DNA from: an uncultured archaeon
Lineage (GTDB): Archaea; Asgardarchaeota; Thorarchaeia; Thorarchaeales; Thorarchaeaceae
DNA length: 32,000 nt
NCBI GenBank assembly: GCA_964354495.1
Contig: CAYHAA010000020.1
Location: 1-32,000 of the forward strand
Reading direction: 5' to 3'
Under the pieces are notes generated by a model. The model was given only the letters and a program-made list of their open reading frames with translations, ran no database searches and had not been told where the DNA came from. This document shows positions 25,496 to 30,549 of the stretch, in pieces. Numbering within the stretch: position 1 is the stretch's first letter; the number at the start of each line of letters is the position of its first letter. The position numbers and the translations under genes were made by a program.

Positions 25496-25840
25496 ATGAT
25501 GACTACTACCACTAAGGAGCCAATGCCAAGCATCGAGGCAGAGCTCTACGAGCTGAAGATGCCGGGTCGACTCTTGGGAAAGGAAGTACTTGATAACAGG
25601 GCTCGACGCATTGGCATTGTTAGAAGCATAAGAATCGCCTTGCATCCATTACGCTCCGAGCTCATTGTGAAGGGCGCAGAAGTCGAGTTTCCTGTCGACT
25701 TCTCGAAGGTTGATGCTGTCGGCACTGTGGTACAGCTTAACTCGGTGGTCAAGGATGCAGAAGAGATAGAGGTCCATGATGTCATAAGGCTACAGAAAGA
25801 GGTCCTTGACGACATCAAATCGTGTCTGGGCGGACAGTAG
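25496..25840 (+). CDS. PRC-barrel domain protein
   Basis: LLGKEVLDNRARRIGIVRSI and PVDFSKVDAVGTVVQL fit the PRC-barrel pattern; AAGGAG upstream. Confidence 0.72.
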   Translation: MMTTTTKEPMPSIEAELYELKMPGRLLGKEVLDNRARRIGIVRSIRIALHPLRSELIVKGAEVEFPVDFSKVDAVGTVVQLNSVVKDAEEIEVHDVIRLQKEVLDDIKSCLGGQ

Positions 25841-25910
25841 TTCCACAACAAGGGCATTTCGAAGAGCTTATACAGCTCGGCTGCCTCCTTCCATTTCTGG
25901 AGGCAAATCC

Positions 25911-26732
25911 ATGGTCCTCACTGTTGAACAACTTGCACGGGCTATTGATCACACCGAGCTAAAGCCAGAGGCTAAGCAGAGTAAGATAAAGCAGCTCTGT
26001 GAAGAGGCAATATCGTACAATTTTGCAGCAGTCTGTATCAACCCAGTCCATATTGAGTATGCAGCTCAGCTGCTCAAGGACTCAGCAGTAAAGGTGGCTT
26101 CTGTCATAGGCTTTCCACTCGGAGCTACTCTGTCTGAGGTCAAGGCCATGGAAACTCGTGAGGTCGTGAGGCGGGGGGCAGATGAAGTTGATATGGTGAT
26201 CAACGTTGGCGCCTTGCGTGACGAGAATTACGATCTTGTGCGAAGCGACATAGAAGCGGTAGTTGCAGCCTCTGGCGAGGCTCTTGTGAAGGTCATCCTC
26301 GAGACTGGCCTGCTCACTGATGACCAGAAGAAGAAGGCATGTCTTCTATCCAAGGAGGCAGGTGCAGATTTTGTCAAGACCTCGACTGGGTTTGGACCAA
26401 TGGGAGCGACTCCTTATGATGTCAAACTCATGCGAGAGACTGTGGGTGACTCCATGGGTGTGAAGGCTGCTGGAGGAATCCGTACATTCAAGGAGGCTCT
26501 CCGATTGATAGATGCGGGAGCCAATAGACTCGGAACGAGCTCTGGGATAGGAATCATTGAAGACTACCGATGGGCTCAGTATAGTGAGTCTTGGATGCAG
26601 CCCGACAAACCCTGCTGGACATGCCCGAGTCGCATGGCGAACATAGCGAAACAACCCAAAGAAGTGTATCTCTGGTATAAACAGCGGTGCCTGATGTGTC
26701 CAAACAAGGACCATAATATCTTCACAGAATAG
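25911..26732 (+). CDS. deoC: 2-deoxyribose-5-phosphate aldolase with a C-terminal four-cysteine extension
   Basis: IDHTELKP, VIGFPLG, KVILETG, FVKTSTGF (Schiff-base Lys), GVKAAGGIR, RLGTSS. ATG 25911 behind GGAGG. Confidence 0.95.
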   Translation: MVLTVEQLARAIDHTELKPEAKQSKIKQLCEEAISYNFAAVCINPVHIEYAAQLLKDSAVKVASVIGFPLGATLSEVKAMETREVVRRGADEVDMVINVGALRDENYDLVRSDIEAVVAASGEALVKVILETGLLTDDQKKKACLLSKEAGADFVKTSTGFGPMGATPYDVKLMRETVGDSMGVKAAGGIRTFKEALRLIDAGANRLGTSSGIGIIEDYRWAQYSESWMQPDKPCWTCPSRMANIAKQPKEVYLWYKQRCLMCPNKDHNIFTE

Positions 26733-26744
26733 GAGGAATAACGA

Positions 26745-28544
26745 GTGTCTGATGCATCATCTCAACTATATTCTGAGGCCGAGCTGCTCTTCATCTCCCT
26801 TATTGATAGGACCATCACTCGAAAGCCTCTGCCTCCGGCCCTCTACAAGGAGTACCTCGGTGGTCGTGGTCTTGGTGTGAAGTTGCTCTACGATAATCTT
26901 GCACCGGGTATTGCTCCTCTCTCCCCAGATAACTGGTTAGTCTTTGCAGTGGGCCCATCAACTGCGACATCAGTCCCTACAGGTGGCCGTTTTGTTGTGA
27001 TTACCAAGTCTCCTGCTACGGGAACAATATTCGACTCGAATGCAGGTGGATACTTTGGCGCTCAGTTACGTCGTGCTGGCCTCGCTGCAGTCATCTTCAC
27101 CGGAGCCTCAAAATCACCTGTCTATCTCTGGATCAATGACAATCAGGTCGAGATTCGTGATGCTTCCAAGATCTGGGGCAAGACTACAGACGTCGCGACC
27201 GACCAGCTGATCAAGGAGACCGATGAAAAGGCACAGGTCGCCTGTATTGGTCCTGCCGGGGAGAATATGATCAATCTCGCAGCTATCGTGACTGACAAGC
27301 ACAGGGCTGCGGGTCGTGGCGGCGTCGGAGCTGTGATGGGTTCCAAGAAGCTTAAGGCAGTGGTCGTTCGTGGGACAAGGACTCCTGGCGTTGCTCAGCC
27401 CGAGAAACTGCGAGAGGCAGTAGAACGAGCACGTCTTCTTATCAAGAAGAACCCAGTGACAGACAAATCGTTGCCAGTCTATGGTACTCCAGTCCTTGTC
27501 AGTGTGATAAACGAGGCTGGAATGCTGCCCACTCGTAACTTCCAAGAGGGTAGATTCAATGATGCTGATGGAGTCTCAGGAGAGAAACTGCTAGAGCGCT
27601 TTTCTCTAAAGCCCTACAACTGCTATGGTTGTCCTATTGGTTGTGGACGCATGAGTCGGGTGCGGGGTAAGGATATGGGCGGTCCCGAATTCGAGTCGAT
27701 ATGGGCACTTGGCCCGCAATGCGGAATCAACGACCTCGAATGGATTGCTTTGGCGAACGATAAGTGCAACCTATTGGGAATCGATACAATCTCAGTCGGT
27801 AGTACTCTCGGGTGTGCCATGGAGCTTGTTCAAAGGGGCAAACTAGAGCATTCGCTCAAGTTTGGCGATACGACGGGAGTCCTTGAAATGATTGAAGATA
27901 TCGCTTATGCCCGTGGTCTGGGAGCGGAGCTGGGGAAGGGTTCCAAAGTATTCGCAGCGAATTATGGAGCTCCTGAGCTCGCCATGCAGGTCAAGGGCCT
28001 TGAGATACCAGCGTACGACCCACGAGGTGTGCAGGGGCATGCTCTTGGGTATGCCACATCAAACAGAGGTGGCTGCCATCTTCGGTCCTACATGATTGGT
28101 CCCGAAATCTTGGGAAGCCCCGTGCTAGTAGACCGGGATATAACCGAAGGCAAGGCCGATCTCGTAATCCTGTTCCAGAATCTATCTGCTGCTATGGACT
28201 GTATGGTTGTGTGCAGATTCACGAACTTTGCTTGGACAGTAGACGACTACGCCGCGATGGTCAGCGCAGGCACGGGTCTAAAGATTGATGGCAAGGAACT
28301 ACTTCGCATCGGAGCGCGGATCTGGAATCTAGAGAAACTGTTCAATATACGTGAGGGATTCGGGAAGAGTGATGACGCTCTGCCTCCACGCTTCTCCACT
28401 CCACTCACAGAAGGTGGCTCGAGAAAAAGGGTAGCTCAGATTGATGTAATGCTTCCAGAGTATTATTCTCGGAGAGGTTGGGACAAAGAGGGACGACCTA
28501 CTGGGAAACTGCTGAAGAGCCTCAACATCCCTATCGAAAGGTGA
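26745..28544 (+). CDS. aor: Tungsten-dependent aldehyde:ferredoxin oxidoreductase
   Basis: YLGGRGLG, KSPATG, SNAGG, GRGGVGAVMGSKKLKA, CYGCPIGCG, GPEFES, LGIDTIS, YDPRG, RGGCH. GGAGG SD; starts 12 nt after the deoC stop. Confidence 0.93.
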   Translation: MSDASSQLYSEAELLFISLIDRTITRKPLPPALYKEYLGGRGLGVKLLYDNLAPGIAPLSPDNWLVFAVGPSTATSVPTGGRFVVITKSPATGTIFDSNAGGYFGAQLRRAGLAAVIFTGASKSPVYLWINDNQVEIRDASKIWGKTTDVATDQLIKETDEKAQVACIGPAGENMINLAAIVTDKHRAAGRGGVGAVMGSKKLKAVVVRGTRTPGVAQPEKLREAVERARLLIKKNPVTDKSLPVYGTPVLVSVINEAGMLPTRNFQEGRFNDADGVSGEKLLERFSLKPYNCYGCPIGCGRMSRVRGKDMGGPEFESIWALGPQCGINDLEWIALANDKCNLLGIDTISVGSTLGCAMELVQRGKLEHSLKFGDTTGVLEMIEDIAYARGLGAELGKGSKVFAANYGAPELAMQVKGLEIPAYDPRGVQGHALGYATSNRGGCHLRSYMIGPEILGSPVLVDRDITEGKADLVILFQNLSAAMDCMVVCRFTNFAWTVDDYAAMVSAGTGLKIDGKELLRIGARIWNLEKLFNIREGFGKSDDALPPRFSTPLTEGGSRKRVAQIDVMLPEYYSRRGWDKEGRPTGKLLKSLNIPIER

Positions 28545-28593: not shown

Positions 28594-30549
28594 CTGCCAA
28601 GAGAAAAACACAGTCGCAGGAAGTTCCGAAGAGGACATGCACCCTACTTGACCAAGATTCGGTTCTACTGGTGCGACTCATGCAACGTACCAAGAATCGC
28701 AGAGACAGAGTGCAGCACCTGTGGTACGCTACCAAGGCAGGTAGAGCTGTCACCGCCAGGGGACCCGTTTCCAGCGATGGATGGCCACCTCAAGAGGGCA
28801 ATAGACACGATTGACTCTCAGTTCGGAGATGGTGTGGGACTTGTTTTGCTTCCTACAAGCAAGACGATAGTGATGAATAAGGTGTCCTCGCTGGATGCTA
28901 TGTATGAGATCATTGTGGACGGATACTTGGTTGGCAGATTACGATTTGATATTGAAAAACACGGATACACCTTTCTCCTTGCTATTGAAGGAGCTCGTAG
29001 AATCGGTGCAGTCAGTAGGCAGAAGTGGGTCTCTATCCATGACGGTGTTCTGAAATATCTGAGAGATGGAGCGAATCTGATGCTCCCTGGTGTACAGGGC
29101 TGTGACTCAGGGATAGAGGTGGATGACGAAGTCTGGATTGTCGGCTCAGATGGTGTTGTCCTCGGCAATGGCATTGCACGAATGAGCGGTGCTGAAATGG
29201 CGAAAGAGAGCAAAGGATTCGCAGTCAAGATTCGCGAGGTTTCCAATCCTACCCCTCCGGCAGAGAATACAGTCGAATCGACGTGGGATGATGCTGTCGC
29301 GGCGAATCTGAATAATCTTGTCAGAATCGAGGAAGAGGCCGTTTCTTTTGTCAGACGTGTCGTCGAAAAGAACAAGGGTCTTCCTGTTGTTGTAGGCTTT
29401 AGCGGAGGAAAAGACTCTCTCGTAACCTATCTTGTCGTGGAGAGAGCAATAGGAGAGAGCCCCCCACTCTTCTTCATGGATACAGGCCTTGAGCTCCCTG
29501 AAACCATCGAATTCATTCGCAGGTTCGCAGAGGGGCGAAATGTACGAATCATTGGCGAGAAGGCTGGAGACCGATTCTGGCAATCTTTGGACGTCTTCGG
29601 TCCGCCGGCCAGAGACTTTCGTTGGTGCTGCAAGGTTCTCAAACTGGGGCCAGCAGCCACATCAATTGCTGCAGAGCTCGGTAGCGAGACCCTCTCCTTC
29701 ATGGGTCAGAGAAAGATGGAGTCTTTCCAGAGATCCGTAGAACCCAGAGTCACAGAGAATCCGTGGGTTCCTGGGCAGATTTCAGCCAACCCGATACAGA
29801 ATTGGAACGCTCTTGAGGTATGGCTGTACACATTCAAGATGAGGGCTGACTTCAACCCGCTCTATACCAAGGGCTATCACAGAATGGGCTGCTACTTATG
29901 TCCTGCATCGCCGCTTGCTGAACTGGAGAGTCTACGTCAGACCCATCCTGAGCTCTACAAGCAGTGGGATGAGAAGATGAGAGAGTGGGCTGGGCGGTAC
30001 GGTTTTCCAGAGGACTGGTTTGAGCTAGGGTTTTGGCGCTGGAAGAACCTGCCAAAGGGGCAGCTCGAACTTATCAACCGACTTGGCTTGAGTATCACTC
30101 CCGCACGACAGAGCCCTGGAGAGAAAATCGAGCTCAACATCACAAAAGGAGTATCCCCATGCACCAAATCTGGTTTCAGTCTTGAAGGCTCCTTCTCAGC
30201 TGGTATTGATCTTAGCAGAATTTCAAAAATCATGCCCATATTCGGGAGTACGAAGGTCTCTGAGGAACTTGGCGCCCTTCGAACAACATCTGGAGAGAAC
30301 CATATTGCGTTCTTTAGCTCTGGTTCTGTGGTCGTGCGTGGCCCCGATGAGCGTACTGTGGAATGTCTTGCTAAGCAATTGGAGCGTGCGACTCGGAGGG
30401 CTCTTCTCTGTCAAGCATGCGGTTCCTGTATCCCACAGTGTGACCAGGGTGCTCTATATCATGATAACGGAAAGATTGCCGTGGACGAAGACAAGTGCAT
30501 TAACTGCCTTGAGTGCGACAAATGGCCTTGCCCTACATATCTGACTTAG
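28594..30549 (+). CDS. Zn-ribbon + PUA + PAPS-reductase-like (PP-loop) + ferredoxin-like multidomain Fe-S protein; probable CTG start at 28594 (ORF track: TTG 28648)
   Basis: WCDSCNVP..CSTCG; PUA region (GANLMLPGV...VDDEVWIV...GNGIARM); FSGGKDS; RWCCKVLKLGP; RMGCYLCP; C-terminal CQACGSCIPQC and CINCLECDKWPCP. Confidence 0.88.
   Translation: MPREKHSRRKFRRGHAPYLTKIRFYWCDSCNVPRIAETECSTCGTLPRQVELSPPGDPFPAMDGHLKRAIDTIDSQFGDGVGLVLLPTSKTIVMNKVSSLDAMYEIIVDGYLVGRLRFDIEKHGYTFLLAIEGARRIGAVSRQKWVSIHDGVLKYLRDGANLMLPGVQGCDSGIEVDDEVWIVGSDGVVLGNGIARMSGAEMAKESKGFAVKIREVSNPTPPAENTVESTWDDAVAANLNNLVRIEEEAVSFVRRVVEKNKGLPVVVGFSGGKDSLVTYLVVERAIGESPPLFFMDTGLELPETIEFIRRFAEGRNVRIIGEKAGDRFWQSLDVFGPPARDFRWCCKVLKLGPAATSIAAELGSETLSFMGQRKMESFQRSVEPRVTENPWVPGQISANPIQNWNALEVWLYTFKMRADFNPLYTKGYHRMGCYLCPASPLAELESLRQTHPELYKQWDEKMREWAGRYGFPEDWFELGFWRWKNLPKGQLELINRLGLSITPARQSPGEKIELNITKGVSPCTKSGFSLEGSFSAGIDLSRISKIMPIFGSTKVSEELGALRTTSGENHIAFFSSGSVVVRGPDERTVECLAKQLERATRRALLCQACGSCIPQCDQGALYHDNGKIAVDEDKCINCLECDKWPCPTYLT

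Follow-up and report, generated by a model that had tools for sequence, protein, structure and literature searches.

2-Deoxyribose-5-phosphate aldolase (DERA, the product of deoC) splits 2-deoxyribose-5-phosphate into glyceraldehyde-3-phosphate and acetaldehyde, and in the textbook deo operon its gene is grouped with deoA, deoB and deoD and with no gene for an aldehyde:ferredoxin oxidoreductase (AOR). Tungsten AOR oxidises acetaldehyde to acetate while reducing ferredoxin; the characterised AORs stand alone, accept a broad range of substrates and serve in peptide fermentation or acid reduction, AOR proper works with free ferredoxin, and to our knowledge none has a dedicated aldolase partner. 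In Hodarchaeales, DERA is encoded within an operon for an SPU-type archaeal microcompartment (bioRxiv 10.1101/2025.11.08.687404, PMC12747264), in which acetaldehyde is converted to acetyl-CoA and NADH, ATP then being gained through acetate kinase. We analysed a stretch of 32,000 nucleotides (nt), hereafter the window, from contig CAYHAA010000020.1 of an uncultured Thorarchaeota (Asgard) archaeon whose genome comprises 3.3 Mb in 51 contigs and is 97.7% complete. In this window a deoC gene is followed after 12 nt, on the same (+) strand, by an AOR gene (aor), and it is probable that the two form a dedicated DERA-AOR operon in which the aldolase bears a docking tail.

Such an operon would serve a single pair of metabolic steps. 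DeoC would cleave 2-deoxyribose-5-phosphate to glyceraldehyde-3-phosphate and acetaldehyde, the downstream AOR would turn the acetaldehyde into acetate with reduction of ferredoxin, and a C-terminal tail of 56 amino acids (aa) on DeoC, made up of an aromatic helix, a four-cysteine module and an acidic end, would dock the aldolase on AOR. Acetaldehyde, which is volatile and toxic, would be produced beside its consuming enzyme and its escape limited. That deoC and aor are functionally coupled is very likely, and stable docking through the tail is moderately so; we lean slightly towards a still stronger form, in which a hard-wired heterocomplex passes acetaldehyde straight to AOR and its genes have been handed on horizontally between anaerobic archaea and anaerobic bacteria. 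The pair may thus be viewed as a shell-free equivalent of the aldehyde-dehydrogenase microcompartment built around DERA in other Asgard archaea. The two share the entry reaction, DERA acting on deoxyribose-5-phosphate, and the aim of confining acetaldehyde and gaining energy, whereas the window pair would deliver acetate and reduced ferredoxin via AOR, with no shell and with confinement by predicted direct docking. AorABC of Aromatoleum aromaticum (8c0z) and WOR5 (6x1o) likewise combine an AOR-family catalytic subunit with a bound protein; their partners, however, are iron-sulfur electron-transfer subunits, whereas the predicted partner here is a substrate-making enzyme. Searches of the literature brought up no paper that describes DERA and AOR as an operon or a complex, and the preprint on the SPU microcompartment makes no mention of AOR (PMC12747264).

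The first enzyme of the pair is assigned to class I DERA by family score, catalytic residues and fold. DeoC scores 289.4 bits against the TIGR00126 equivalog (cut-off 117.3) and is 50-60% identical to the solved short DERAs 5dbu, 6d33, 3ngj and 3r12, the best match being 5dbu at 264 bits. Its AF2 model, with a predicted local distance difference test (pLDDT) of 92, places a TIM barrel at aa 1-217 and superposes on DERAs in Foldseek with a root-mean-square deviation of 0.7-0.8 Å over about 215 columns and a TM score (by target) of 0.95-0.98. D94, K127, K156 (the Schiff-base lysine, within FVKTSTGF) and K185 are invariant across 29 Asgard DeoCs, and K156, K185 and D94 align with their counterparts in 5dbu. 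The TIM barrel, the Schiff-base lysine motif and TIGR00126 membership are common to the short-type DERAs (EC 4.1.2.4), which differ from the window DeoC in lacking its 56 additional C-terminal residues with four invariant cysteines. The gene is present in a single copy in the window genome.

Beyond the barrel, the resemblance to described proteins ceases: alignments to the DERAs of the PDB stop near aa 217-222, with no solved DERA aligning past about aa 222, and the tail has no match in Pfam. Searched with a tail profile, 1.84 billion representative proteins yielded just 13 matches, nearly all of them DeoC tails or fragments, the two weakest being unrelated Cys-repeat proteins. The tail marks a hitherto undescribed DeoC subfamily with a new small cysteine domain. 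C235, C238, P239, C260 and C263 are invariant in all aligned Cys4-tailed sequences, and at the tail end alignment A3 shows no variation at N269 and F271 and very little at D273. In the proximal part, 16 AOR-linked Asgard DeoCs all have W221 and S225, and W228 is almost without exception. Modelled on DeoC alone, the tail is helical (pLDDT 79-90), and the cysteine module consists of short helices at 234-237, 239-242 and 250-261 (pLDDT 80-90). The two invariant CxxC pairs recall a zinc ribbon or a rubredoxin-like fold, but the Pfam search gave no match and the model is helical. The module probably binds a metal. It lies outside the confident interface described below and may do no other work than hold the tail in shape.

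The second enzyme groups with AOR proper, of the tungsten type, and not with formaldehyde ferredoxin oxidoreductase (FOR), glyceraldehyde-3-phosphate ferredoxin oxidoreductase (GAPOR) or WOR5, by bit scores and residue alignment. It has the two-domain architecture of about 600 aa (AFOR_N, 262 bits; AFOR_C, 458 bits) and scores 608, 579 and 569 bits against the AORs 9mqx, 9g7j and 1aor, compared with 324 bits for FOR and 184 for WOR5; its score against the archaeal GAPOR model (37.8 bits) is far below the cut-off of 1300. Membership of NF007354 (PRK09849, a 703-aa equivalog) was rejected, the score of 209.5 bits lying below the curated cut-off of 868 with the N-terminal domain alone matched. 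Aligned to 1aor, C293, C296, C300 and C490 correspond to the [4Fe-4S] cluster ligands, E315 and H445 to the catalytic Glu and His, and D347 and D485 to the pterin-binding Asp motifs. Architecture, length and all of these residues are therefore those of AOR proper (Pyrococcus furiosus 1aor; 9mqx, 9g7j), at about 50% identity; what distinguishes the window enzyme is that it sits in sub-clades whose members all have a tailed deoC upstream. The ten further AOR-family paralogues of the genome are all at most 37% identical to it, and hence the deoC-linked gene is the only AOR proper that the genome encodes.

The association of the two genes is maintained well beyond this genome. An AOR orthologue stands 3' of deoC in all 23 same-genus genomes with assessable downstream DNA. 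In a survey that took in 80 deoC loci from sampled members of the Asgard phylum, AOR lies directly 3' of deoC in ten genera of the window's family (f1), in genus g12 of family f12 and with one DeoC type of family f22, identified through the literature as Hodarchaeales, where the linked pairs are at about 50% identity. The intergenic gaps are 11-12 nt in f1 and f12 (once 19 nt, at L042) and -8 to 35 nt in Hodarchaeales. All AOR-linked Asgard DeoCs surveyed carry the full cysteine tail, and none of the tail-less DeoCs in the survey has an AOR within 6 kb. The strongest evidence comes from the gain and loss of AOR within a single gene context. The f1 gene order runs from a Hef nuclease through a small open reading frame (ORF; cluster c7), deoC and, where present, AOR to a PUA/PAPS-reductase-like gene. 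Six f1 genera have a tail-less DeoC of 220-229 aa and no AOR, and in the three of these compared for gene order the neighbours are exactly the same, minus AOR. Family f12 presents the same contrast, with tail and AOR in g12 and neither in g34. A genome-level search found no AOR more than 39% identical to that of the window in any of the six tail-less genomes, and genomes possessing a Cys4-tailed DeoC with no adjoining AOR have a related AOR elsewhere (54%, 52% and 46-48% identity).

Two further loci may be recorded here. In family f8, a 52%-identical AOR (G031:C42:14590-16377) lies about 10 kb from a Cys4-tailed deoC (C42:26011-26637) on the same contig, and may represent a loosened form of the pair. 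In one Thorarchaeia-type metagenome-assembled genome (MAG), the deoC upstream of aor (L127:3394-3996) is broken after about aa 201 by a frame change, with loss of the tail, which could reflect an assembly error or a pseudogene.

A cross-phylum scan, in which an alignment of the AOR was run against one genome per species and 80 named loci were returned, extended the association to bacteria. In addition to Thorarchaeia-type loci and one from Hodarchaeota, it showed a tailed deoC immediately 5' of AOR in Hadesarchaea, Thermoplasmata, four Cloacimonadota, two Anaerolineae, two Chlorobiota, two Bacteroidales and three unclassified or probably mis-binned MAGs. The linked DeoCs outside Asgard archaea all keep a PCxxC (mostly PCxxCP) and a CxxC motif together with a related terminal motif, N[RK]FYE or RK[ND]KDF, and mostly keep an aromatic residue at 221 and W228 (L137 has Met at 221). 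Conversely, in other lineages, among them Firmicutes, methanogens, Desulfurococcales, Helarchaeota and Baldrarchaeota, about 39 AOR loci could be assessed and were without deoC. The adjacency persists to about 32-35% DeoC identity (tblastn) and across both domains, and it is far beyond chance.

A forward test pointed the same way. Divergent metagenomic DeoCs were chosen solely by the tail profile: the two with the aromatic motif and with available DNA proved to be followed by an AOR, in one case at +4 nt (54% identity) and in the other at +18 nt (51%), another precedes, at +26 nt, a gene of at least 554 aa, and downstream of a DeoC with no aromatic residue at 221 lies a convergent gene for a peptidase and not AOR. 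None of the best 120 longer DeoC homologues was a DeoC-AOR fusion; DeoC was instead fused to a purine-nucleoside phosphorylase (PNP), RpiB, a flavoprotein or a radical-SAM protein. The PNP (PF01048)-DeoC fusions, each a single polypeptide, occur in Anaerolineales and metagenomes (P0073, P0103, P0107, P0110) and tie DERA to nucleoside breakdown.

Phylogenetic analysis, with the AOR paralogues of the window genome as outgroup, resolved all deoC-linked AORs into two clades. Clade I (SH-aLRT 85) holds 38 linked AORs and one that was not assessable, and clade II (SH-aLRT 95) holds seven, all linked. Linkage to deoC requires two changes on the AOR tree, compared with a mean of 31.6 after shuffling; none of 500 shuffles gave as few as two. 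Sub-clades of the AOR tree have their counterparts in the DeoC tree, and thus the pair has been inherited and transferred as a unit. The two genes form a module that is widespread and moves horizontally. Where tailed and tail-less DeoCs occupy one Thorarchaeia locus, they are only about 50% identical and fall in different parts of the tree, implying that one DeoC type replaced the other in place. Both types are found at one locus within one family (L034-L036, L039, L040, L047-L049, L055 and L056 versus L031-L060). The initial annotation of this DNA had proposed a dedicated nucleoside/DNA-scavenging module with a tungsten AOR that oxidises acetaldehyde, and had suggested looking for the adjacency in other genomes and for a deoC-linked AOR clade. 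The adjacency proved not to be confined to the window genome, recurring in three families of Asgard archaea and in six or more other phyla, and linked AORs have clades of their own; together with the placement of the enzyme in AOR proper, these patterns lend the proposed module support. The four-cysteine tail of DeoC, which accompanies the AOR, had no part in that proposal, and the module reaches further than proposed there.

Docking was addressed by a complex prediction. The DeoC-AOR model attained an interface score (ipSAE) of 0.80 (0.80, 0.75 and 0.80 in individual runs) against 0.01 for the best of three controls. In calibration, 58 of 80 solved complexes came up to that mark, as did 2 of 110 mismatched pairs, although these counts hold only roughly for a prediction made from our own 16-row alignments of linked pairs. 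The runs had at least 87% of contacts in common, and the pLDDT of the partners was at least 89. Confident contacts on DeoC comprise residues 192-195, 213-214, 217-218, 220-221, 224-228 and 230-233, the later ones within the proximal tail, and those on AOR, in addition to the main surface given in Table 1, comprise 231-236, 498-500 and 516-520. Within the main surface, 16 linked AORs all have P459, D463, R464, G469, K470 and V474, and the contact residues W221, S225 and W228 of DeoC are still present in AOR-linked DeoCs as little as 50% identical. The PDB matches of DeoC and AOR include no entry with both families, and recall of a solved complex is therefore unlikely. The model thus supports binding of DeoC to AOR, short of demonstrating it.

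Comparison with Hodarchaeales provides a separate line of argument. Here the tail-less DERA is encoded in a 482-aa frame, in which an uncharacterised N-terminal part of about 260 aa precedes DeoC, and its operon includes genes for an aldehyde dehydrogenase (Aldedh), an RnfC/Nuo51-like Fe-S flavoprotein, the bacterial microcompartment (BMC) shell proteins BMC-H and tandem BMC (BMC-T), RpiB, two EutN shell proteins and acetate kinase. The operon is seen at L096:159-7852 (G139:C10) and also at L094, L095, L098, L109 and L110. Within the same genus, the microcompartment form and the form with tail and AOR share two of three downstream genes (a 380-aa gene and MetRS) after one form-specific gene, and the two forms are mutually exclusive in the 10 Hodarchaeales genomes seen. 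BMC-domain genes were found neither in the four Hodarchaeales genomes with tail and AOR nor in the window genome, and an SPU-type microcompartment at the window locus was rejected on that ground. By this comparison, DERA is linked genetically to either of two modules that consume acetaldehyde, in support of the functional reading of the pair. The occurrence of tail and AOR in place of the microcompartment in one Hodarchaeales genus suggests two evolutionary answers to one aldehyde problem.

Since the window genome contains 11 AOR paralogues, a chance adjacency is possible a priori, and with much synteny common to related genomes it might be argued that the arrangement is merely inherited gene order devoid of functional meaning. 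This is scarcely credible when the pair is kept across domains and phyla amid otherwise unrelated neighbours, the linked AORs form clades of their own, and tail and AOR are gained or lost jointly. A functional pair could also be envisaged to run in reverse, AOR reducing acetate at the expense of reduced ferredoxin and DeoC condensing the resulting acetaldehyde with glyceraldehyde-3-phosphate to deoxyribose-5-phosphate, with docking serving to pull an unfavourable acid reduction. The DERA and AOR reactions are both reversible, a complex would help to trap scarce aldehyde, and the large subunit of a class I/II ribonucleotide reductase was not found in the window genome. Nevertheless, a reverse run is very improbable: the genome encodes a class III anaerobic ribonucleotide reductase (NrdD, C1:228419-230191, 458 bits), so that a biosynthetic role of the pair is not needed, the alternative partners of DERA in Hodarchaeales, aldehyde dehydrogenase and acetate kinase, are catabolic (PMC12747264), and the DeoC-PNP fusions found elsewhere point to nucleoside breakdown.

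The role of the tail invites closer scrutiny, and several observations weigh against our preferred reading of a dedicated operon with a docking tail. The four cysteines lie outside the confident contacts; P0049 and families f6, f8 and f15 have Cys4 tails with no adjoining AOR, which means that a tail does not always go with adjacency; family f5 has a homologous tail devoid of cysteines; and the tail folds well on DeoC alone. These would fit the same pathway with a tail that does not dock but acts as a structural zinc module for DeoC oligomerisation or stability, or as a regulatory or nucleic-acid-binding finger, leaving acetaldehyde to diffuse to AOR. We hold this to be unlikely, because tail and AOR come and go jointly, in one context in two families and genome-wide, because W221, S225 and W228 are kept in linked DeoCs but not in the f6, f8 and f15 tails, and because of the separation of the complex prediction from its controls. 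Alternatively, the cysteine module might conceivably hold iron in a rubredoxin-like manner, or an Fe-S cluster, and relay electrons near the [4Fe-4S] cluster of AOR, DeoC doubling as a redox partner subunit. The four invariant cysteines do form two CxxC pairs, the predicted AOR patch takes in residues 498-500, just after the cluster ligand C490, and other AOR-family enzymes have docked iron-sulfur subunits, for example AorA in 8c0z; yet the position of the cysteines away from the confident interface, the helical module with no rubredoxin knuckle pair and the use of free ferredoxin by AOR proper make such a relay quite improbable. Further points on the opposing side concern breadth and expression. 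The backbone of the DeoC tree is unresolved, and hence the occurrences are not independent and may go back to a single origin or to a few. In the sediment metatranscriptome X20, small contigs of at least 99% likeness lie on deoC (26140-26492 and 26561-26702) and aor (28066-28254) and none spans the junction, although such contigs cannot reveal strand, ends or level and DNA carry-over in X20 is possible. A junction-spanning contig (26694-26835) was found, but it derives from a run of unknown kind.

The supply of substrate is likewise a point at which the preferred reading is exposed. Neither the bacterial phosphopentomutase deoB (TIGR01696) nor PF00591 was found in the 97.7% complete window genome, the latter implying no TrpD and no thymidine/AMP phosphorylase, so that the source of deoxyribose-5-phosphate is only plausible. 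Archaeal phosphopentomutase belongs to the phosphoglucomutase/phosphomannomutase (PGM/PMM) family, and the genome encodes three PGM/PMM-family mutases alongside four PNP/UDP-family phosphorylases, all of unproven specificity. Deoxyribose-5-phosphate would be supplied from nucleosides by the four PNP-family phosphorylases together with a pentomutase of the PGM/PMM type. Anoxic sediments, where Asgard archaea are abundant, contain a large pool of extracellular DNA that serves as a nutrient.

Should a dedicated DERA-AOR operon with a docking tail be confirmed, it would constitute a specific route from deoxyribose to glycolytic carbon, acetate and reduced ferredoxin, with acetaldehyde kept out of the cytoplasm, and the reduced ferredoxin could feed hydrogen production or ion pumping. 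For one clade among the many unassigned AOR paralogues of anaerobes, both the physiological substrate and the partner enzyme would then be assigned. Moreover, a naturally docked aldolase-oxidoreductase pair would be of interest for DERA-based biocatalysis.

At the level of the locus itself (Table 1), the ribosome-binding site of aor overlaps the deoC stop codon, an arrangement that suggests translational coupling. The GTG start of aor is supported by its relatives, in which the aligned codon is ATG, TTG or GTG and the gap measures 11-12 nt. A terminator scan found no + strand terminator-like site between the two genes, and the 12-nt gap is too short to hold a promoter; a sigma-70 promoter scan is not applicable to archaea. 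The initial annotation was right in every detail when it described deoC and aor as co-oriented, 12 nt apart and each preceded by GGAGG, and its view that the link to an acyl-CoA synthetase of the same window is weak also stands. That fragment (2-400) was rejected as a module member: it comprises the CoA-binding N-terminus only, on the opposite strand and 25 kb off, and acetate would here be the end product.

Table 1 Features of the deoC-aor locus (window coordinates)
Feature	Position	Strand	Description
GGAGG ribosome-binding site of deoC	25899-25903	+	7 nt before ATG; read from sequence
deoC (P0001)	25911-26732	+	ATG at 25911, TAG at 26730-26732; 273 aa
Proximal tail of DeoC, aa 217-233	26559-26609	+	Extends last barrel helix; W221, S225, W228; predicted AOR-docking surface
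Four-cysteine module of DeoC, aa 234-263	26610-26699	+	PCWTCPSR ... KQPKEVY ... CLMC; presumed metal-binding
C-terminal motif N-x-F-x-[DE] of DeoC (NIFTE here)	26715-26729	+	Conserved
GGAGG ribosome-binding site of aor	26732-26736	+	Overlaps deoC stop; 8 nt before GTG; read from sequence
aor (P0002)	26745-28544	+	GTG start; 599 aa
AOR aa 453-476	28101-28172	+	Main predicted contact surface for DeoC tail (complex model)

Family f5 offers a variant of the tail in a different setting. Its DeoCs (L062:5839-6657, L065, L067 and L068) keep KKQPKEVYDFY within a homologous tail from which all four cysteines are gone, and the neighbours of deoC are MutS and a 710-aa gene with a Ribophorin_I domain, with no AOR nearby.

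Two neighbouring genes flank the pair in the window. Directly upstream of deoC, on the same strand, lies an ORF of the 110-150-aa class with no Pfam family (25496-25840, +), which overlaps two similar-sized minus-strand ORFs. It belongs to the cluster c7 mentioned above (L031, L034, L037, L040, L047 and L060) and is kept in Thorarchaeaceae with or without AOR. After aor comes a gene for a PUA and PAPS-reductase (PP-loop) protein (28648-30549, +), which stands directly 3' of deoC in AOR-less relatives and is thus part of an older synteny and not of the AOR module.

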